From NCBI GenBank assembly GCA_964512925.1, contig CAZEKH010000005.1, positions 4,325-68,324 of the forward strand: DNA of 64,000 bases, given 5' to 3'. Position numbers and translations under genes: made by a program. This document shows positions 4,576 to 50,642 of the stretch, in pieces (position 1 is the first letter of the stretch; every line of letters starts with the position of its first letter). This stretch comes from an uncultured Candidatus Saccharibacteria bacterium (GTDB taxonomy: Bacteria; Patescibacteriota; Doudnabacteria; UBA920). A model generated the notes under the pieces. That model saw only the letters and a list, made by a program, of their open reading frames with translations. It did no database searches and was not told the DNA's origin.

Positions 4576-4743
4576 ACTTTTATAAATTGTGACTTACCTA
4601 TTTGGCGTCATTTGGGCCTCAGAGCTTAAAAGCTTGTTAGTTTGGTTGTTTGTTTTATAAAAAACATTCCCTTCGCCGTTTGTAGGAGTCGCATCTCCCC
4701 GCCTTTGGCGGGGGAATGACAATTTAAATGCTATATTGTTTGT

Positions 4744-5715
4744 ATGCTGTATTTACTTTTAGGGTCAGATGATTTTACGAAAAAACAATATGTACATAAT
4801 TTGGCTTTAGAAAAAAAGGCTGATTTGGTTGTGTTTGAGGCAGGGGAGGAAGTATCTACCCAAAAGATGCTTGAAACGGATTTGTTTTCCAAGCCTAAGG
4901 TTTTTGTTTTGCCAGCGCTTTTAGGGGTTTTGGAAGAACAAACTTTGGAAAAACTGATTAAATCTCCAAATGTCATAGCAATAAATACTGAAAGTTTGGA
5001 CAAAAGAAAAACTGAGAACAAAAAACTGTTAGAAAGGAAAGATGTTGTTATTCAAAATTTTGTGCTGCCCCACGGTAGAGAGTTGGACGGTTGGATATTA
5101 AAACATTTTAAAGATTTAGGCGGCCATATTTCAGCCGATGGAGCGGATGAATTGGCTAAAAGGCTTGGTCGGGATGAAGCTAAAGAAACTAAAGCGGGAG
5201 GAAAAGTTATAGCTGTGGAAGAAGTTTACAGTCTTTGGCAGGCGGACAGCGAAGTGAAAAAGCTTGTAGCTTTTTGCGGGGATAAAGTTTGTACAGCCGA
5301 AGATGTAAAAAGTTTGGTTGGCTTGGATATTGAAATTGACCCGTTTCGCATCACCAATGCCCTAGCTGACGGGAAGACCGAGGAAGCTTGGGAATATCTG
5401 GAAGGTTTTTTTAAAAACCAGGGATCTAGCGACCGTAAAGCTTTGTGCATTAACCTAAACGCCCTGCTGGCAGAACAGTTTCGTAATGTCTATATGGTTC
5501 AAGGATTTTTGCAGGAAAGGACTTCTGAAGAAGAAATTTTACAGCAAACAGGCTGGAAATCGGGAAGGCTGTTTGTGATGAAAAAGATAGCTGGCAAATT
5601 TAAACCGGAAAAAGTTTTAGAAACTCTTAAAAAACTCTCAGCCCTGGATATTGAGCTAAAAACCGGCTCAATGCCGGAAAGGGTGATGCTGGACTTGATA
5701 CTTGCGCAGTTGTAG
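4744..5715 (+). CDS. holA: DNA polymerase III delta subunit
   Basis: 323 aa; N-terminus 'MLYLLLGSDDF', length and helical C-terminus match HolA. Confidence 0.7.
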   Translation: MLYLLLGSDDFTKKQYVHNLALEKKADLVVFEAGEEVSTQKMLETDLFSKPKVFVLPALLGVLEEQTLEKLIKSPNVIAINTESLDKRKTENKKLLERKDVVIQNFVLPHGRELDGWILKHFKDLGGHISADGADELAKRLGRDEAKETKAGGKVIAVEEVYSLWQADSEVKKLVAFCGDKVCTAEDVKSLVGLDIEIDPFRITNALADGKTEEAWEYLEGFFKNQGSSDRKALCINLNALLAEQFRNVYMVQGFLQERTSEEEILQQTGWKSGRLFVMKKIAGKFKPEKVLETLKKLSALDIELKTGSMPERVMLDLILAQL

Positions 5716-5753
5716 ATATATTGCACAAATTACAAATTATACAAATATTAAAC

Positions 5754-5891
5754 TGTCATCCCGGCCAAAGTTAGACGCGAGCCGGGATCCAGGGTTTGTT
5801 ACTATATTTTTGATTCGATAATCACCTTTGGTCGTTGAAATTCGTAAACCATAACCTCACCCCTAACCCCATCTCCCATATGGGAGAGGGG
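5754..5891 (+). repeat. copy A of a ~140-bp direct repeat (5' hairpin ATCCCGG/CCGGGAT, 3' palindromic element CCTCACCCCTAACC + TCTCCCATATGGGAGA)
   Basis: aligns along its length with 6449..6594. Confidence 0.7.
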
Positions 5892-5938
5892 AAAAAAGGC
5901 ATTTTGAAAGCGCGACCGTACTGTGTCGATCGCGCTGG

Positions 5939-6319
5939 TTATTTTTTGCTTAGGGTTAGGTACACTTCCCATGCCAAATTCTTGATCGTGCAAGTACTTA
6001 AATGTACCTGGATATTTTGCACCCTGAGCGCACGATATAATTGACCATACAATAGGTGGAATTTGACATAATCCATAGAAAGGATTTCGCCTAACAGCGT
6101 ATCACCGGTGAGATCGTCCCACTTTTTTCCACTTACCCGCGACACGCACTCATAAACCGCTTGAACAACCATGAACTCTGTATTTTGAGCACGCAGGTCT
6201 TTGATCGCATCGTACCAGTTTTTAAGGTCTGGTCTGCCGGGGTTTTGGACAGCAATCTGTGCGGCACGCTTAGCTTTCATTATTTCCAGTATTTCCTTTG
6301 TCGGAAGTTTTGTATCCAT
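5939..6319 (-). CDS. hypothetical protein (126 aa) carried between the direct repeats
   Basis: internal ATG of ORF 5939..6334 preceded by GGGAGGAAAAATG Shine-Dalgarno; locally higher GC than surroundings. Confidence 0.45.
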   Translation of the reverse strand: MDTKLPTKEILEIMKAKRAAQIAVQNPGRPDLKNWYDAIKDLRAQNTEFMVVQAVYECVSRVSGKKWDDLTGDTLLGEILSMDYVKFHLLYGQLYRALRVQNIQVHLSTCTIKNLAWEVYLTLSKK

Positions 6320-6448
6320 TTTTCCTCCCATCAAGTGTTCTTAGCCACTCACGGCTAGTGTGTTGCCCGGGGTTCTGCCCGGGCTCAGTACAGTAGATAA
6401 TAGATTTTATAACAAGGGGTGAAAATAGGCAAGAGAGGGTAAAATGTC

Positions 6449-6594
6449 TGTCATCCCGGAATTTTTAAGGGAAGTTAAAAATATCCGGGATCCAGGGTTT
6501 ACTAATTTATTTTTGATTCTATTATTAACTTTGGTCATTGAAATACGGAAGTTATATCCTCACTCCTAACCCCATCTCCTATATGGGAGATTGG
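6449..6594 (+). repeat. copy B of the ~140-bp direct repeat
   Basis: same order of 5' hairpin, conserved core CCGGGATCCAGGGTTT..TTTTTGATTC and 3' CCTCACTCCTAACCCCATCTCCTATATGGGAGA element. Confidence 0.7.
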
Positions 6595-6599
6595 AAAAA

Positions 6600-6630
6600 C
6601 AAAAACCCCGAACTAAATCGGGGTTTTTAA
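6600..6630. terminator. bidirectional rho-independent terminator (AAAACCCCG..CGGGGTTTT) at the 3' end of typA
   Basis: 9-bp GC stem flanked by A-run and T-run. Confidence 0.55.
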
Positions 6631-6636
6631 GTAACA

Positions 6637-8472
6637 TTATCTCGCAGCTCTTTTCCTTTGATTCGGGTCCAGGATTTTTTTGCGGATTCTTATAGACAGG
6701 GGAGTTACTTCCATTAGTTCGTCCGGACCTATATACTCCATCGCAAAGTCCATAGTGACTGGCTTATGCGGGGTTAAGATGATGGCATCGTCTGCGCCTG
6801 AAGATCTCATATTGGTAAGTTTTTTGGTTTTGCAGACATTTAGTTCTATATCTTCGCTTAAAGCGTTTTGCCCGACTACCATACCCTGGTAAACTTCCAC
6901 GGCAGGACCTATAAACAAAGTTCCGCGTTCCTGGGCATTGTTAAGACCGTAAGCGTTCGATGTTCCGCTTTCTGAGGCTATGAGCGATCCGTGGTCGTTG
7001 GCGTGTTCGTCTATCTGGTGAGCTGGTTTGTAGCTGTCAAATAAATTATTCAAAATTACTGTGCCGCGGGTGCGGGTGAGCATCAGGTTTTTAAGGCCAA
7101 TCAGTCCGCGGGTGGGGATCAGATATTCTGCGTGGATTTCTCCGGAAGGAGTGGTTTCCATAGTCTGCAGTTCTCCGCCTCTTTTACCCATTTCTTCTAT
7201 CATCACGCCTTGGTACTCGCTGGGCACATCCACTGTGGCTATTTCATATGGCTCCATCCGCACCCCATTTTCTTCGTGGTAAATAACCTGGGGCTGGGAA
7301 ACCTGGAGTTCAAAGCCTTCACGGCGCATCTGTTCTATAAGAACCGCTAAATGTAGTTCTCCTCGGCCGGAAACTAAAAAGCTTTCCGCGCCTTCGGGCG
7401 ACGGGTCAACTTTCATAGCCACATTGGTTTCCAGCTCCTTGTCCAAGCGGTCGCGGATGTTTCTGGAAGTGACAAACTTTCCTTCGCGGCCCGCAAACGG
7501 GGAAGTGTTTACGCCGAAAGTCATCTTGATGGTAGGCGGCTCTATTTCCACCGGCGGCATAGAAACCGGGTTTTGGATGTCGGTTAAGGTGTCGCCGATA
7601 TGGATGTCGTCAAACCCGCCTATAGAGACAATGTCGCCGGCCACCGCTTCGTCCGCATCCACTTTTTTTAAGCCTTCGTACATCTGGAGGGCGGAAATTT
7701 TACCAGTGGTTTTTTCGCCGTTTGGCTTAACTTGGAGGATATTTTGCGCCTTGCTGATTTTGCCGGAAAATATTTTGCCTATACCCATCCTGCCTTTGTA
7801 GTTGTCGTAAGCCAGAGCTAAGACTTGCAAAGCAAACGGTTTGTCAGTCTCGGCAAAAGGCGCGGGGATGTATTTGATGATAGTTTCAAATAGTGGAGAG
7901 ATGTCAGGGGCAGCAGAATTTTTTATCTTCGCCAACAGGCTTTCCAAATTCAAGTCAGCCAAGCCTTTTACTCCGCTGGCGTAGATGATAGGGAAGTCGG
8001 TCTGTTCGTCATTGGCATTCAGCTTTACGAAGAGGTCAAAAGTTTTATTGATGGTTTCGTCAGGGTTTGAGCCTTCTTTGTCCACTTTGTTTATGACCAC
8101 TATGGCTTTCAGTCCCAGCTGTAAAGCTTTTTTTAAGACGAACTTTGTTTGAGGCATCGGACCTTCTTTGGCGTCAACCAAAAGAAGGACTCCGTCTGCC
8201 ATTTTCAAAGTCCTTTCCACTTCGCCGCCAAAGTCCGCGTGTCCCGGGGTGTCTACAATATTGATCTTTACCCCTTTATACACCAAAGATGCGTTTTTGG
8301 CCTTGATAGTGATCCCGCGTTCTCTTTCCAGATCCATACTGTCCATTATCAAATCCGCGGTGTCGTCATTTTTGACAGTCTGGGTTTGTTTCAGCATAGC
8401 GTCCACCAAAGTGGTTTTGCCGTGGTCAACGTGGGCAATGATGGCGATGTTTCTGATGTTGTCTCTTTTCAT
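6637..8472 (-). CDS. typA: translational GTPase TypA/BipA
   Basis: 611 aa; '[16 protein letters not shown]' G1, DTPGHADF G3, NKVD G4; EF-G-like domain order. Confidence 0.9.
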   Translation of the reverse strand: MKRDNIRNIAIIAHVDHGKTTLVDAMLKQTQTVKNDDTADLIMDSMDLERERGITIKAKNASLVYKGVKINIVDTPGHADFGGEVERTLKMADGVLLLVDAKEGPMPQTKFVLKKALQLGLKAIVVINKVDKEGSNPDETINKTFDLFVKLNANDEQTDFPIIYASGVKGLADLNLESLLAKIKNSAAPDISPLFETIIKYIPAPFAETDKPFALQVLALAYDNYKGRMGIGKIFSGKISKAQNILQVKPNGEKTTGKISALQMYEGLKKVDADEAVAGDIVSIGGFDDIHIGDTLTDIQNPVSMPPVEIEPPTIKMTFGVNTSPFAGREGKFVTSRNIRDRLDKELETNVAMKVDPSPEGAESFLVSGRGELHLAVLIEQMRREGFELQVSQPQVIYHEENGVRMEPYEIATVDVPSEYQGVMIEEMGKRGGELQTMETTPSGEIHAEYLIPTRGLIGLKNLMLTRTRGTVILNNLFDSYKPAHQIDEHANDHGSLIASESGTSNAYGLNNAQERGTLFIGPAVEVYQGMVVGQNALSEDIELNVCKTKKLTNMRSSGADDAIILTPHKPVTMDFAMEYIGPDELMEVTPLSIRIRKKILDPNQRKRAAR

Positions 8473-8490: not shown

Positions 8491-8528
8491 CCCTCCCCAA
8501 GAGTTGGGGAGGGTCAAGGGAGAGGTTG
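8491..8528. repeat. GC-rich nested palindromic element (CCCTCCCCAAGAGTTGGGGAGGG + TCAAGGGAGAGGTTG)
   Basis: perfect 8-bp inner inverted repeat; same family as 5855, 31889, 32284, 59848. Confidence 0.7.
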
Positions 8529-24725: not shown

Positions 24726-26027
24726 ATGCCGTATTTTGAGATTTTGAAAAAAGCAGAACTCACCCCAGTCCTCTCTTTAGAAAATAGAGGGAGTGATATA
24801 TTCCCCCCCTCTTTAAGCAAAGAGGGCGAAGGGGGAGTTTTGGGAGCTAGGACGGGCATCATCCATACCGCGCACGGGGATATAAAGACCCCGGCGTTTT
24901 TGCCTATTGGCACCAAAGGCGCGGTAAAGGCTGTGACGGCGGAGGAGCTGAAGTTTTGGGGCGCGGACATCATCCTTGCCAATACCTACCACCTTTGGCA
25001 GCGTCCGGGCGACGCTCTCATATATAAAGCCGGGGGGCTGCATAAATTTATGAACTGGCAAGGGCCTATCTTTACTGACTCCGGGGGGTTTCAGGTTTTC
25101 TCGCTCGCAAAAATGAGAAAAGTTTTAGAATTGGGCGTGCTGTTTCAGTTTGATTTAGACGGCAGGCAGGAACTTTTGTCGCCGGAAAAATCCGTTGATA
25201 TCCAAGCTAACTTAGGCAGCGACATCTGCCTCATACTGGATGATTTTCCGGGATATCCTTGGACTTATGAGCGAAGCAAAGAATCCATTGAGCTTACAAA
25301 CCGTTGGGCTGAAAGGGCGATAAAGGAGCATAAGAGAATAGTGACTGATGGCGACCCCATTAACCCCGGCCAAAAGCTGTGGGGGATAGTTCAGGGCGCA
25401 TCTTTTCCGGACTTAAGGGAAATGTCGGCTAAAGCAATGGTTCAGTTTGGATTTGAAGGCTTTGCCATTGGCGGCGTGGCCGTGGGCGAACCTCACGAGG
25501 AGATGATGAAAGCTGTGGAGGTTACCATACCGCATTTACCGGAAAATGCCCCAAAACATCTTTTGGGCGTCGGAACGCCTTTTGACATTGTTCAGGCAGT
25601 AGCGCGTGGCTGCGATACTTTTGACTGCGTGATCCCGACTAGGGAAGCTAGGCATGGAAGACTCTATATAAATAACAAATATCAAATTTCAAATAACAAA
25701 GCAGACAACCTCTCCCTTTCTCCCTCCCCTCATGAGGGGAGGGAAGGGGTGGGGTTGCAGTTTGAAGGCTATAGTACCATCAATATCTTCAACGAAAAGT
25801 TTAAAGAAGATTTTTCCACCATAGACGATCAGTGCGATTGCTATTTGTGCCAGAACCATACCAAGTCTTACCTTAGACATTTGTTTCAAACTGGCGAGCC
25901 TTTGGCGACAAGGCTTGCAACTATGCACAACCTGAAATTTTATTTAAACTTAATGGCTAAAATCAGGAAATCCATCCAATATGATTATTTTGATGAGATG
26001 GTCTTAAACTACAAAGAAATTAAATAG
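24726..26027 (+). CDS. tgt: queuine tRNA-ribosyltransferase carrying two inserted palindromic elements
   Basis: 433 aa; 'LANTYHL', 'DSGGFQV', 'GFAIGG', Zn site CxCxxC..H (DDQCDCYLCQNH...HL). Confidence 0.85.
   Translation: MPYFEILKKAELTPVLSLENRGSDIFPPSLSKEGEGGVLGARTGIIHTAHGDIKTPAFLPIGTKGAVKAVTAEELKFWGADIILANTYHLWQRPGDALIYKAGGLHKFMNWQGPIFTDSGGFQVFSLAKMRKVLELGVLFQFDLDGRQELLSPEKSVDIQANLGSDICLILDDFPGYPWTYERSKESIELTNRWAERAIKEHKRIVTDGDPINPGQKLWGIVQGASFPDLREMSAKAMVQFGFEGFAIGGVAVGEPHEEMMKAVEVTIPHLPENAPKHLLGVGTPFDIVQAVARGCDTFDCVIPTREARHGRLYINNKYQISNNKADNLSLSPSPHEGREGVGLQFEGYSTINIFNEKFKEDFSTIDDQCDCYLCQNHTKSYLRHLFQTGEPLATRLATMHNLKFYLNLMAKIRKSIQYDYFDEMVLNYKEIK
24757..24840. repeat. nested palindromic element inside tgt codons ~12-39 (CCCCCCCTCTTTAAGCAAAGAGGGCGAAGGGGGAG with outer arms AACTCACCCC/GGGGGAGTT)
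   Basis: ~84 nt, multiple of 3, encodes LTPVLSLENRGSDIFPPSLSKEGEGGVL absent from Tgt orthologs as remembered. Confidence 0.65.
25706..25757. repeat. nested palindromic element inside tgt (CAACCTCTCCC..CCCTCCCCTCATGAGGGGAGGG..AGGGGTGGGGTTG)
   Basis: perfect 8-bp inner arms, ~11-bp outer arms; lies in a ~36-aa segment extra relative to E. coli Tgt. Confidence 0.65.
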
Positions 26028-31888: not shown

Positions 31889-31925
31889 CCTCTCCAAGTT
31901 TGGAGAGGGGTTAGGGGAGAGGTTG
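31889..31925. repeat. nested palindromic element (CCTCTCCAAGTTTGGAGAGG + GGTTAGGGGAGAGGTTG) whose 3' arm supplies the SD for the next gene
   Basis: GGGGAGAGG ends 7 nt before the ATG at 31930. Confidence 0.65.
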
Positions 31926-44595: not shown

Positions 44596-44618
44596 ATTCC
44601 CGTTTTCACGGGAATGAC
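44596..44618. repeat. TCCCG/CGGGA hairpin element (GATTCCCGTTTTCACGGGAATGAC) in the glyA leader
   Basis: same GGGAATGAC family as 4712, 48621, 49393. Confidence 0.5.
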
Positions 44619-48538: not shown

Positions 48539-48620
48539 AACATATATCCTTGGCCTTTGATTTTTAAGCTTTTTCAGATTTTACCTATTTTTTTAAGTGC
48601 TTTTTATCTCAGTCTCTGTT

Positions 48621-48644
48621 GTCATTCCCGCGAAAGCGGGAATC
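48621..48644. repeat. TCCCG/CGGGA hairpin element (GTCATTCCCGCGAAAGCGGGAATC)
   Basis: 8-bp perfect stem. Confidence 0.5.
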
Positions 48645-48704
48645 TAAGTTTGAGAGAATTTTCGGTACTAACAGATATAAACTGTTTTTCTGTGGAAAAC
48701 TGCA

Positions 48705-48733
48705 TTTGACAAGTTTTTGCTAGGGGTATAATA
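48705..48733 (+). promoter_or_regulatory. near-consensus sigma70 promoter (TTGACA-N15/17-TATAAT)
   Basis: gcatTTGACAagtttttgctaggggTATAATat. Confidence 0.55.
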
Positions 48734-48739
48734 TATATA

Positions 48740-48893
48740 AAATCTATGCAAAGAAATTTTTCCCACAACCTCATTATTTCTCTCCCGGTCGTCAAGACCT
48801 GGGTGTTTAAAATGCGGGGTAGTGTGGGAAAGAAAAGATAACAGTAGTATAAGTAAAGTTTCCACACCATACCCCGCAAAGAGCGGGTTTTTT
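48740..48893 (+). ncRNA. candidate ~150-nt small RNA between the consensus promoter and an intrinsic terminator (identity unknown)
   Basis: no credible ORF or SD; TTTCCCACAACC pairs GGTAGTGTGGGAAA with alternative partner TTTCCACACC; terminator CCCCGC-AAAGA-GCGGG + T7 at 48871..48893. Confidence 0.35.
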
Positions 48894-49010
48894 TCTGGGT
48901 AAGAGAAACTTAGAGAAATAGAATGTTAGAGAATTAGAGAGATAGAGTGTTAGAGAGGAAGAAAGTTAGCAAAGTAGATAAAATGAACTTTAAAAATTTT
49001 TTGTAGTTTT

Positions 49011-49128
49011 ACCCCCTCTCCCGTGTGGGAGAGGGTTGGGGTGAGGTTTCAGCGATGGTAATAAAACCAAGGTTTGTTATTATCAAACATTATTACCTCA
49101 CCCTAGCCCTCTCCGTGATCGGAGAGGG
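49011..49128. repeat. symmetric composite of two palindromic elements in opposite orientation around an AT-rich inner hairpin
   Basis: CCCTCTCCCGTGTGGGAGAGGG+TTGGGGTGAGGT ... ACCTCACCCTAGC+CCTCTCCGTGATCGGAGAGG. Confidence 0.65.
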
Positions 49129-49475
49129 AATCTGAAAAAGGCTTGAAATATTTATTATTTGTTCTTTAAAACTTAACACCAACCGCCCACAAAAGTTTTT
49201 CCAACAATTGATTTACTGATTATCAGATATTCTGATCAACTTGGAACTTCTTTTGTGTGCAGTCCGTTTGTTTTTATTTCTTTTCCTCCCGCTGGTCGGG
49301 ACGGACACAAGATGGAATCTCATTCCAAAGCACATAAAAACAAAAAAGGCACACGAAAGTTTGGGCAGATCTTGGCTTACCAGCCACTAAAAAATCCCGT
49401 TTTCAAAATTCGGGATTCTGCCCATAGCTATCCGGGCCGCGCAATTTGCTGGCCCATTCGTTCGAGGAGGAAAAA

Positions 49476-49679
49476 GTGGATAGACCAAAGGCATCCACGG
49501 GTGTTGGTCAAAAATTTTGTCAAAGTTGTCGTAGAACTTCAACTTTCATCACCGTGCAAGGTGACGGACATGAGATTGAAGTTTGTGAAAACTGTTTGAC
49601 AAACGGCGAACCAATATCTAGATTCAACGATCCGGATTATGCTTCGGATGTATCGGCCATGAGACTAATCATGGTCTAA
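49476..49679 (+). CDS. hypothetical small zinc-ribbon protein (GTG start after GGAGG SD)
   Basis: 67 aa; CQSC..(17)..CENC; locally GC-rich patch. Confidence 0.3.
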   Translation: MDRPKASTGVGQKFCQSCRRTSTFITVQGDGHEIEVCENCLTNGEPISRFNDPDYASDVSAMRLIMV

Positions 49680-49808
49680 CCAGCAACAGACTTAAAGAGC
49701 AAGTACTTGGGTAGTACCCTGCAATTATACCGCTCTTCAGGTCTTAACCCCGGGGTTCACCAGCTGACCACCATCGGCTAGTGGATCCCGGGCCACTCAA
49801 TTTTTTCT

Positions 49809-49846
49809 TCCTCTCCGTTATCGGAGAGGGTAGGGTGAGGTAACGG
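49809..49846. repeat. palindromic element (CCTCTCCGTTATCGGAGAGG + GTAGGGTGAGGTAACGG)
   Basis: same family, reverse orientation. Confidence 0.65.
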
Positions 49847-50013
49847 ACTCAAAATTCAAATCAGATTTATAAATCATTTAAACTTAAAATCCCCATTTTG
49901 GTTGGGAATGACGGAAAAAACATAAAAATTTCATACCCCCAAAAACCTATTAAATTTTTTGATAAGTTCTTGGGCGCATGAAAGCGCTCGATATTGGTTT
50001 TGTTGGAGGAACA

Positions 50014-50169
50014 ATGAGTGACACTAAACCGCAGGAGCCTGCAATTCGCGCCACAAATAAGGGTCTTAAAAAACCCCGACCACATTACGAGGTCGTAGTA
50101 CACCCGGAAACCCGGAGTGTGGATGTGATCCTAAAACCGTGCGAAGAATGCAAAACCTGCAAGACCTGA
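50014..50169 (+). CDS. hypothetical small Cys-rich protein (C-terminal CEECKTCKT)
   Basis: 51 aa from internal ATG with GGAGGAACAATG SD; followed by strong terminator. Confidence 0.35.
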   Translation: MSDTKPQEPAIRATNKGLKKPRPHYEVVVHPETRSVDVILKPCEECKTCKT

Positions 50170-50179
50170 CAGGTTTTTA

Positions 50180-50252
50180 GGCAGAGCCGCTACTAATTTA
50201 GTCTTTCTTAGACTTTTTTAGCAGAGGCTCTGCCACTATTTTTTTTATTTTT
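50180..50252 (+). terminator. long nested hairpin GGCAGAGCC..AGTCTTTCTTAGACT..GGCTCTGCC followed by T-rich run
   Basis: 9-bp outer stem + inner palindrome + TTTTTTTTATTTTT. Confidence 0.55.
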
Positions 50253-50262
50253 AAATTCGGGT

Positions 50263-50294
50263 GTCAAACTAGTCACATATGTGACTAGTTTGAC
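50263..50294. promoter_or_regulatory. perfect 32-bp palindrome GTCAAACTAGTCACATATGTGACTAGTTTGAC
   Basis: fully self-complementary; architecture shared with 46814..46849. Confidence 0.4.
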
Positions 50295-50308
50295 AGAGGT
50301 TGGGTTTT

Positions 50309-50330
50309 TGGTTGGGATGCTTTGGAATCC
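50309..50330 (-). pseudogene. degenerate copy of the tRNA-Pro 3' terminus
   Basis: TTTTTGGTTGGGATGCTTTGGAATCC vs tRNA TTTCTATGGTCGGGATGCTGGGAATCG. Confidence 0.4.
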
Positions 50331-50452
50331 TTTTCGCTGCGACTCGTAGCCGGGGCGTTATACTCAAGCATTCCAAATAGTCGTGCTTTTCTCATGCACT
50401 TCGATTCCAATAATTTTTATACCAAATAAAAAATACCGAAATTATTTCGGTA

Positions 50453-50473
50453 TTTTTTATTTGGTCGGGATGC
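50453..50473 (-). pseudogene. copy of the tRNA-Pro 3' terminus (acceptor 3' strand + CCA + flanking T-run), 20/21 identical
   Basis: TTTTTTATTTGGTCGGGATGC vs TTTTTTCTATGGTCGGGATGC at 50560..50580; then a non-tRNA hairpin CCCCGAC..GTCGGGG. Confidence 0.5.
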
Positions 50474-50568
50474 CCCGACGACCACTTCGTGATGTCGGGG
50501 TAAACTGGGTATTTCCAACAACCTATAACCATAGAAAAAAGCGCGACACAAGAACACACTTTTTTCTA

Positions 50569-50642
50569 TGGTCGGGATGCTGGGAATCGAACCCAGACTA
50601 CATCCACCCCATGGACGCGTACTACCACTATACTACATCCCG
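50569..50642 (-). tRNA. tRNA-Pro (anticodon GGG), CCA encoded
   Basis: reverse complement: CGGGATG acceptor, D arm GTAT-AGTGGTA-GTAC, anticodon arm CGTCC-ATGGGGT-GGATG, T arm CTGGG-TTCGATT-CCCAG, CATCCCG-A-CCA. Confidence 0.8.

Follow-up and report, generated by a model that had tools for sequence, protein, structure and literature searches.

The interval between the convergent genes holA and typA in a 64,000-nucleotide (nt) stretch of an uncultured Patescibacteria genome (contig CAZEKH010000005.1 of assembly GCA_964512925.1; this whole stretch is here called the window) contains two direct repeats of ~145 bp, units A and B, that bracket a single orphan open reading frame (ORF) of 126 amino acids (aa), ORF126. 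These repeats probably represent a genome-specific mosaic repeat, resembling the intergenic mosaic elements (NIMEs) of Neisseria and the bacterial interspersed mosaic elements (BIMEs) of enterobacteria, that lies at both ends of an orphan gene within an accessory-gene hotspot. Each unit is a mosaic of three parts: a hairpin of the NTS class, or of the class of "Ssn-related motifs" (SRM); an AT-rich spacer of ~60 nt; and a triplex-type motif (TM) on the minus strand. The parts are arranged as follows.

5753 to 5898, plus strand: mosaic repeat unit A, consisting of SRM hairpin, AT-rich spacer, reverse TM motif, and A-run
5753 to 5792, plus strand: unit A hairpin (hairpin finder), CTG-TC-ATCCCGG, a 17-nt loop of the CC..AG class, and CCGGGAT-C-CAG
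5793 to 5854, plus strand: unit A AT-rich spacer, ~80% identical to the unit B spacer
5855 to 5891, minus strand: unit A triplex-type motif, CCCCTCTCCC-ATAT-GGGAGATGGGG-TTA-GGGGTGAGG
6448 to 6599, plus strand: mosaic repeat unit B, with the same layout as unit A
6448 to 6495, plus strand: unit B hairpin, CTG-TC-ATCCCGG, a 25-nt loop that contains a stem of its own (AA..AT class), and CCGGGAT-C-CAG
6558 to 6594, minus strand: triplex-type motif of unit B, the more degenerate of the two, CCAATCTCCC-ATATA-GGAGATGGGG-TTA-GGAGTGAGG

The interval was originally singled out by a sequence-only reading, which described two direct repeat copies of ~140 bp with a 5' hairpin, a conserved core, and a 3' palindromic element, and all of these components are present. 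The copies align without gaps over 115 nt (5782-5896 and 6485-6599) at 83% identity (blastn E = 2e-30) and begin with the same 12 nt, CTGTCATCCCGG (5753-5764 and 6448-6459). The hairpin arms, ATCCCGG and CCGGGAT, are identical in both copies; the core, written as a degenerate pattern, has two matches in the window, whereas shuffles predict 0.00; and the palindromic element lies at 5868-5891 and 6571-6594. The hairpin part can be written as CTGTCATCCCGG-loop-CCGGGATCCAG and is of the NTS/SRM (dRS3-like) class. The triplex-type part reads CCCTCTCCC..GGGAGAGGG..GGGTGAGG on the minus strand and is of the TM_ECO/PIT class. The ~40 nt at the 3' ends of the units match other intergenic sites of the window on their own (31889-31924, 49008-49048, and 49801-49841; blastn), and a pattern scan and blastn returned only two full units in the window. 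The spacer has no match in the Joint Genome Institute (JGI) metagenomes and is so far private to this genome. A pattern combining hairpin flank and spacer had one match in these metagenomes, inside an unrelated ORF, and was taken as chance, as were six matches of the 16-mer CCGGGATCCAGGGTTT in viral contigs, all of them GC-rich.

The hairpin arms and their flanks have changed less than the rest of the units. Across arms and flanks there are no changes in 28 nt, whereas the remainder of the units has diverged by ~20%; by our own estimate, the probability of finding 28 unchanged nucleotides by chance is ~0.8^28 = 0.002. The loops of the two units, in contrast, are unrelated; one is of the CC..AG class and the other of the AA..AT class, which are the most frequent classes across bacteria, each accounting for 26 of 127 among the matches listed. 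Because the arms are unchanged and the loops are of different classes, the hairpins seem to have been preserved, or exchanged, separately from the remainder of the unit, suggesting that their arms are kept by selection or conversion.

One consequence of the repeat is a 41-aa ORF inside unit B (6444-6569), which is called as a gene in a Logan assembly (L001, 291-416). This call is almost certainly spurious, an artifact of the repeat; with loops that differ in length by 8 nt, unit A lacks a corresponding frame. For annotation, motifs of this kind warrant caution, since they yield spurious small ORFs and can mimic the ends of mobile elements.

The hairpin class has been described in other bacteria. 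NTS (CGTCATTCCCGCGMAVGCGGGAATCYRG) is a longer oriented motif that contains the neisserial dRS3 repeat, ATTCCC-N8-GGGAAT; SRMs are hairpins of 20 to 50 nt that flank genes of the GIY-YIG family (cd10448); and in Neisseria and Wolbachia the small GIY-YIG nuclease Ssn binds and cuts hairpins of the NTS/SRM class, in single-stranded DNA (ssDNA) only (Chenal et al., Nat Commun 2025, PMC11893778). The action of SsnA on NTS is confined to the motif strand, and the RNA form is not bound; binding depends critically on the C that follows the palindrome, and cutting on the three bases that precede it (GTC) (PMC11893778). In N. meningitidis, SsnA lowers transformation by NTS-flanked DNA (PMC11893778).

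The hairpins of units A and B have the length and the flanking bases of this class. The copies read TGTC-ATCCCGG...CCGGGAT-C-CAGG, with arm-to-arm spans of 31 nt (5758-5788) and 39 nt (6453-6491), or 36 and 44 nt when the GTC and C flanks are included, and each is thus an inverted repeat within the 20- to 50-nt range that folds in ssDNA, with predicted energies of -9.5 kcal/mol for unit A and -13.4 kcal/mol for unit B (z = -4.9 for unit B). They are called SRM-type here because their arms and flanks fit the class, not because they match the literal published pattern.

The arms of these hairpins are widespread in bacteria. In contigs representing one genome per species (596 Gb), the pattern GTCATCCCGG-N10-40-CCGGGATCCAGGG occurs at at least 118 loci, against ~0.5 expected by chance, or at most ~5 were all genomes GC-rich (our own calculation). 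The hosts belong to the Alpha-, Beta-, Gamma-, and Deltaproteobacteria, Bacteroidota, Balneolales, Chloroflexota, Actinomycetota, Elusimicrobia, and Binatia and include two Parcubacteria metagenome-assembled genomes (MAGs). In 49 of the 117 distinct matches listed, an inverted partner that ends in GGRATGAC comes after the hairpin, the median gap being 24 nt. At no fewer than three loci (L029, L071, and L098), inverted hairpins with identical arms flank a gene for a single-domain GIY-YIG protein of ~100 aa, with the products at L029 and L071 matching PF01541 at E = 1e-15 to 1e-16, and L107 has a fourth GIY-YIG gene of the flanked kind.

Several individual matches deserve mention. In a Candidatus Parcubacteria MAG (L128, 115-444), two identical 52-nt SRM hairpins stand inverted at the ends of a 330-bp element with an AT-rich interior of 214 nt and no ORF, a form of the hairpin resembling a miniature inverted-repeat transposable element (MITE) or a REPIN. 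Parcubacteria CG1_02_58_44 (L017, 280-640) has two tandem SRM doublets, each pairing GTCATCCCGG..CCGGGATCCAG with a downstream GTCGTCCCGG-type partner in inverted orientation, which form a short NIME-like array in a genome of the candidate phyla radiation (CPR). The match in a Methanoregulaceae archaeon MAG (L102) lies in coding-like sequence and may be due to chance, and the flanks of the matches in a "Klebsiella pneumoniae" MAG (L031, L074, and L083) look GC-rich, suggesting mis-binning.

The 3' part of the unit follows the design of the "intrastrand triplex motif" TM_ECO, CCCTCNCCC-N3-6-GGGNGAGGG-N3-GGGNGAGGG (Holder et al., NAR 2015, PMC4666352). TM_ECO has been described from more than 260 genomes; its E. 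coli copies are always intergenic, inverted pairs are sometimes seen, and the motif is associated with loci whose arrangement differs between strains (PMC4666352). On the minus strand, the 3' element of unit A shares this block design. A tolerant regular expression detected six TM-like motifs in the window, against none in 100 Markov shuffles, and the total reaches ~10 when four variants are added, those of the two units and those at 31889 and 49810. The motif is therefore multi-copy and over-represented and, with the sole exception of 25709-25754, intergenic. The motifs at 49012-49046 and 49096-49128 fit the TM_ECO consensus with four or fewer substitutions; those of units A and B also require an indel and are thus variants. 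The exceptional site at 25709-25754 consists of two overlapping TM-like motifs (CCCTCCCC-TCATGA-GGGGAGGG...) that form a palindrome inside a 433-aa ORF (24726-26027), which may be a fusion of two genes.

Both motif classes recur elsewhere in the window. Over the whole 64 kb, SRM-type hairpins number five clear copies and one degenerate copy, all intergenic. The related elements outside units A and B are these.

4666 to 4720, minus strand: long-loop hairpin of the SRM type (TTGTCATTCCC...GGGAATG), lying between a methyltransferase-like ORF and holA; predicted ssDNA fold of -11.5 kcal/mol
8491 to 8525, plus strand: TM-like motif just upstream of typA
31889 to 31924, minus strand: isolated TM-type motif, the strand given being that of the blastn match to unit A, with the G-rich side on the plus strand
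44596 to 44618, minus strand: isolated dRS3/NTS-type hairpin, GTCATTCCCGTGAAAACGGGAATC (hairpin finder)
48620 to 48647, plus strand: near-canonical Neisseria-type NTS, TGTCATTCCCGCGAAAGCGGGAATCTAA, with 2 mismatches to the published NTS (PMC11893778)
49012 to 49046 and 49096 to 49128: inverted TM pair, the second preceded by CCAAGGTTTGTTATTAT, which resembles the start of the unit A spacer
49790 to 49922, minus strand: third unit of the same architecture, with degenerate SRM-like hairpin, AT-rich spacer, reverse TM, and A-run
49880 to 49912: the degenerate hairpin (hairpin finder)

The spacer of the third unit can barely be aligned with those of units A and B, and a partial version of the unit order is present at 49040-49145. 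The order SRM, spacer, and reverse TM is also found in a Hyphomicrobium MAG (L041), with 33 nt between SRM and reverse TM. Literal dRS3 sequences (ATTCCC-N8-GGGAAT) occur in the window only at 44596-44615 and 48624-48643, and units A and B are not literal dRS3.

The interval that houses units A and B and ORF126 is bounded by two conserved genes. The placement between holA and typA in the sequence-only reading is borne out by Pfam, and a pil operon lies a short way upstream of holA.

4744 to 5715, plus strand: holA (DNA polymerase III delta subunit), left anchor; PF21694, E = 2e-15; homologues at 58% identity or less
6600 to 6629, minus strand: typA intrinsic terminator (terminator scan)
6637 to 8472, minus strand: typA/bipA, right anchor; PF00009 and PF21018; TypA relatives at 77 to 78% identity, assigned to Candidatus Doudnabacteria or the Patescibacteria group

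In nine Patescibacteria relatives, the space between holA and typA is occupied by unrelated cargo, amounting to 1 to 7 kb where the interval is complete. Both genes were seen in seven of the nine; because of contig ends, L138 shows typA only and L005 shows holA only. The order in the seven is pil operon (seen in 4 of 7), holA, variable block, convergent typA, and then, in most, an AI-2E transporter. The contents of the variable block are listed by relative.

L007 (a 949-kb relative): three ORFs, preceded by a HicB/HicA-like toxin-antitoxin pair at 7060-7470 that is uncalled in the record and was read from the DNA
L003: eight ORFs, including DinB
L134: seven ORFs, including DinB
L132: insertion sequence (IS) fragments (DDE_3, rve)
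L133: PadR/PspC-type genes
L135: four small ORFs (DUF5684, DUF1059)
L137: copper-resistance cluster
L138 (the closest TypA relative, 82%): a DUF305-like gene (read from the DNA) 34 nt after typA, with the contig ending before holA

The holA-typA interval is best read as a recombination-prone accessory-gene hotspot in this Patescibacteria lineage. The sequence-only reading had suggested looking in relatives for an empty holA-typA junction, or for the same ORF without repeats; no empty junction, ORF126, or 145-bp unit was found in any of the nine. It had also held that a common intergenic element with no tie to cargo would speak against a cassette. The unit comes close to such an element, being composed of two intergenic motifs that occur throughout bacteria.

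Hairpins of the SRM type also occur at the typA junction of relatives, directly 3' of typA in L003, L134, and L007 and 5' of typA in L132; none was seen there in L133, L135, L137, or L138. Those of L003 (6783-6825) and L132 (14427-14472) have a common 26-nt loop, AAAATTTATATTGCTATTAAATTTAT, and lie on opposite sides of typA. A possible SRM after holA in L003 was rejected, as it corresponds to the -35/-10 promoter of the next gene, a layout repeated in L005.

ORF126 and its surroundings include the following features.

5909 to 5936: hairpin AGCGCGA..TCGCGCT, 3 nt past the ORF126 stop codon, read from the sequence and not called by the terminator scan
5939 to 6319, minus strand: ORF126, orphan, 126 aa, predicted to be all-helical; Shine-Dalgarno sequence GGGAGG at 6324-6329
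6365 to 6384: hairpin GCCCGGG-GTTCTG-CCCGGGC, in the presumed ORF126 5' leader
6404 to 6432, minus strand: promoter-like site TTGCCT-17-TAAAAT, by consensus match only

The minus-strand ORF with its GGGAGG sequence and the palindrome between the repeats at 6365-6384 are thus as first described. ORF126 is probably a real gene of somewhat atypical codon usage, as judged from its codon score, the strong Shine-Dalgarno sequence, and the promoter-like site. Its codon-usage log-likelihood is 0.060 per codon, ~1.8 standard deviations below the long genes of the window (0.145 ± 0.046); shadow ORFs score -0.04 ± 0.08, and the five other frames of the same stretch score -0.28 to -0.46. The hairpin at 5909-5936 is possibly a terminator for ORF126, for read-through from holA, or for both. 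In contrast to the impression of a locally higher G+C content, ORF126 (0.433) is within the range of 30 long genes of the window (0.416 ± 0.039), and typA is richer (0.45 to 0.53), so the argument from G+C content for a foreign origin fails.

ORF126 is an orphan in every collection searched. It belongs to no family in Pfam, NCBIfam, PADLOC, or PHROGs (one chance-level PHROGs match, E = 0.032), and a word search of 5.8 billion clustered proteins returned only ORF126 itself, from the source contig and from two Logan assemblies; the Logan assemblies of SRR14271336 and SRR14271332 carry the identical locus. A HMMER search of 1.84 billion representatives yielded, besides ORF126, three marginal matches to long repetitive proteins that were judged spurious, and tblastn against phages, plasmids, and the nine relatives found nothing. 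A single-sequence AF2 model is all-helical and of low confidence (predicted local distance difference test, 60.7), and its Foldseek comparison with PDB and BFVD gave nothing below E = 1. ORF126 is not a GIY-YIG protein. When the segment between the units (5899-6447) was compared with the window by blastn, nothing was significant. Below blastn significance, 6343-6384 and 49750-49798 have GCCACTCA, CGGCTAGTG, CCCGGGGTTC, and CCCGGGC in common, in different order; the first of these sites is the presumed ORF126 leader, and the second is downstream of another small ORF.

That second small ORF (49446-49679) is also an orphan, with a CxxC..CxxC zinc-ribbon-like arrangement and nothing above Pfam cutoffs, and it is bracketed by inverted TM motifs. 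It lies in a gene-poor stretch of ~2 kb (48540-50560) that is dense in repeats, including the NTS at 48620-48647, the TM pair at 49012-49128, and the unit at 49790-49922. A run of 8-nt periodic AGAGNNTT-like units occupies 48904-48967. The 3' end of tRNA-Pro (50569-50642, minus strand) and its T-run (TTTTTT.TATGGTCGGGATGC) occur in three repeats, at 50300, 50453, and 50560, which look like attachment (att)-site scars of successive integrations beside the tRNA gene.

How the unit-gene-unit arrangement might have formed can be sketched from these elements. The orphan gene could have arrived by recombination of incoming DNA at a resident unit, giving an "NTS-gene-NTS" structure; alternatively, one unit could have been duplicated, with the two copies diverging later. 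Should the genome encode an Ssn-type nuclease, plus-strand ssDNA that is incoming or replicating would be cut beside both hairpins, and such cuts would separate the cassette from the homologous sequence on its flanks and so modulate its exchange. Nuclease involvement at the holA-typA locus is suggested by analogy with Neisseria. Patescibacteria, or CPR bacteria, are thought to take up DNA via type IV pili. In a stronger version, the SRM-spacer-TM units would be boundary elements of a Patescibacteria cassette-exchange site, equivalent in function to the NIME/NTS arrays of Neisseria, at which an Ssn-type nuclease encoded elsewhere in the genome cuts incoming DNA at the two same-strand hairpins and thereby controls which accessory genes are swapped in or kept, with the fixed hairpin-TM pair constituting a new two-part recombination module; we consider this version speculative and rather unlikely.

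Several observations weigh against interpreting the repeats as a mosaic family at a hotspot. The family amounts to two good copies and two degenerate ones. Among the nine relatives, none was found with an empty site or a single unit that would tell insertion from duplication. The published SRM string, HGTCWYN(0-2)YYVSBRHN(0-5)WNVSBRGN(0-2)RNCYNB, has no literal match in the window: it misses units A and B because it limits loops to 0 to 5 nt and theirs are 17 and 25 nt, and it fails at the 48620 copy at the last base only. The hairpins of units A and B are in direct orientation, as opposed to the inverted orientation seen around ssn genes and in doublets. No Ssn/GIY-YIG gene was found in the window by a home-made three-sequence profile run against stop-to-stop ORFs of at least 40 aa, which gave nothing below E = 0.8. 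Juxtaposition of SRM and TM is rare elsewhere, being present in 3 of 117 matches listed, and may be accidental. Finally, formation of a stable triplex in vivo is unsupported even in E. coli (PMC4666352).

The sequence-only reading had proposed a cassette-like or MITE-mobilised insertion, and only the first half of this proposal stands. Since ORF126 is an orphan and the holA-typA cargo is variable, a cassette-like, lineage-specific insertion is a fair description. A composite cassette in which the 145-bp unit is a non-autonomous element, two copies of which carried ORF126 into the junction, would account for direct repeats around a single orphan ORF at a variable locus, and elsewhere the hairpin does form inverted doublets and surround a small nuclease gene in an IS-like manner (discussed in PMC11893778). 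However, the units lack terminal inverted repeats, as their ends (CTGTCATCC... and ...GGGGAAAAAA) are not inverse complements, and their flanks (ATATTAAA / GGCATTTT and AAAATGT / CAAAAACC) show no common target-site duplication. The copies are direct, only 83% identical, and differ in their loops; no third full copy, and none with different cargo, is present in the 64 kb or in the JGI metagenomes; the neighbors are holA and typA, with no transposase nearby; and the parts of the unit occur independently of each other. These points make mobilization by a MITE quite unlikely. A very improbable alternative treats the units as attL and attR of a small integrated element, that is, as a recombination site duplicated on integration. 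Direct repeats would then be expected to bound a foreign-looking segment, as they do here, and filamentous phages of Neisseria use dRS3-type hairpins as targets for integration (PMC1797815), but the 557-bp insert has no integrase or phage gene in or beside it, mismatches are scattered over the whole unit without an identical core between divergent arms, and ORF126 is unmatched in phage and plasmid collections.

Two further explanations do not involve mobility. The units could encode a small structured RNA or act in cis as RNA elements, such as a 3' untranslated region or terminator module, and be paralogues that flank the ORF by chance. A plus-strand hairpin with a T-run follows both units (5909-5936, then TTATTTTTT; 6600-6629), fold z scores are -2.9 for unit A and -3.4 for the minus strand of unit B, and the stem is kept while the loop varies. 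Yet beyond the two hairpins the folds predicted for units A and B are not alike, the conserved pieces are DNA motifs found in both orientations at hundreds of unrelated intergenic sites, and SsnA does not bind the RNA form (PMC11893778). At the gathering threshold, Rfam 15 recognized four tRNAs only in the whole window, and hits at E < 10 in 5650-6700 were at chance level only (best, 26.5 bits, against a cutoff of 55). We therefore regard an RNA function as improbable. Functionless local history, in which slippage or unequal recombination duplicated the unit and the ORF stretch is noncoding filler or a decaying gene, is unlikely but fits the orphan status of ORF126, its codon score ~1.8 standard deviations low, its low-confidence model, and the age of repeats that are only 83% identical. 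Against it, the frame of ORF126 scores far above the other five (0.060 against -0.28 to -0.46) and is accompanied by a Shine-Dalgarno sequence and a promoter-like site, and 28 unchanged nucleotides beside ~20% divergence (P ~ 0.002) point to constraint or conversion acting on the hairpin.

If the repeats are indeed mosaic units at a hotspot, then NTS/SRM hairpins, lately linked to Ssn ssDNA nucleases, and TM motifs, linked to genome instability, also populate the tiny genomes of Patescibacteria, where they merge into mosaic units, and these units mark a conserved accessory-gene hotspot between holA and typA. With two same-strand hairpins and one orphan gene, the locus would offer a small test case for motif-shaped gene exchange outside Neisseria. 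Both motif classes, as well as the idea of mosaic repeats beside variable genes, are already published. The occurrence of NTS/SRM and TM motifs in a Patescibacteria genome, the long-loop hairpin, and the fixed SRM-spacer-TM unit appear to be new.

Among known systems, MITEs and composite transposons resemble the present arrangement in that short noncoding repeats border a cargo gene; the units differ in having no terminal inverted repeats, target-site duplication, or matching autonomous IS and in their low copy number and 17% divergence. There is no adjacent integrase and no identical core of the kind expected of an integron or integrative element, although no search aimed at attC sites was made. 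There are also parallels with the repetitive extragenic palindromic (REP) sequences of enterobacteria and pseudomonads, with the BIME and REPIN-RAYT systems. They, too, are short, oriented intergenic hairpins, often in inverted doublets and in mosaics with other motifs, and they are tied to a small single-copy gene, nuclease- or transposase-like, that is flanked by the same hairpins. The enzymes are different, a GIY-YIG nuclease (Ssn) as opposed to the Y1 HUH transposase TnpA_REP, and whereas REPs are species-specific, SRM-type arms are conserved across phyla.

The triplex-type part agrees with TM_ECO in its three-block purine/pyrimidine design, TTA second loop, intergenic location, multiple copies, occasional inverted pairs, and association with rearranged loci. 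The copies in units A and B differ from it by an extra G and by ATCTCC in place of CTCTCC in one arm, copy B is weak (-5 kcal/mol), and within the units the motif stands at a set distance from an SRM hairpin. The hairpin part agrees with NTS/SRM in being oriented, with GTC immediately 5', C immediately 3', and a CAG tail; its arms, ATCCCGG/CCGGGAT, lie one step away from ATTCCCGC/GCGGGAAT. The lengths of 36 to 44 nt (20 to 50 stated), the multiple intergenic copies, and the motif-gene-motif layout also correspond. The differences are loops of 17 to 25 nt in the units, direct orientation, a bracketed gene that is not ssn, and a Patescibacteria MAG as host, a group absent from the main text of PMC11893778.

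The arrangement as a whole also resembles the NIMEs, in which dRS3 hairpins alternate with repeat segments of ~50 to 150 bp beside variable genes (Bentley et al. 2007, PMC1797815). The holA-typA units differ in that there is no long array, only a single unit at each end of the gene, and in that a TM, a second and unrelated motif, closes each unit where a further dRS3 would stand in a NIME. As in NIMEs, a GC-rich hairpin is joined to an AT-richer repeat segment of ~100 bp in a variable neighborhood, and the combination is a proposed substrate for recombination.

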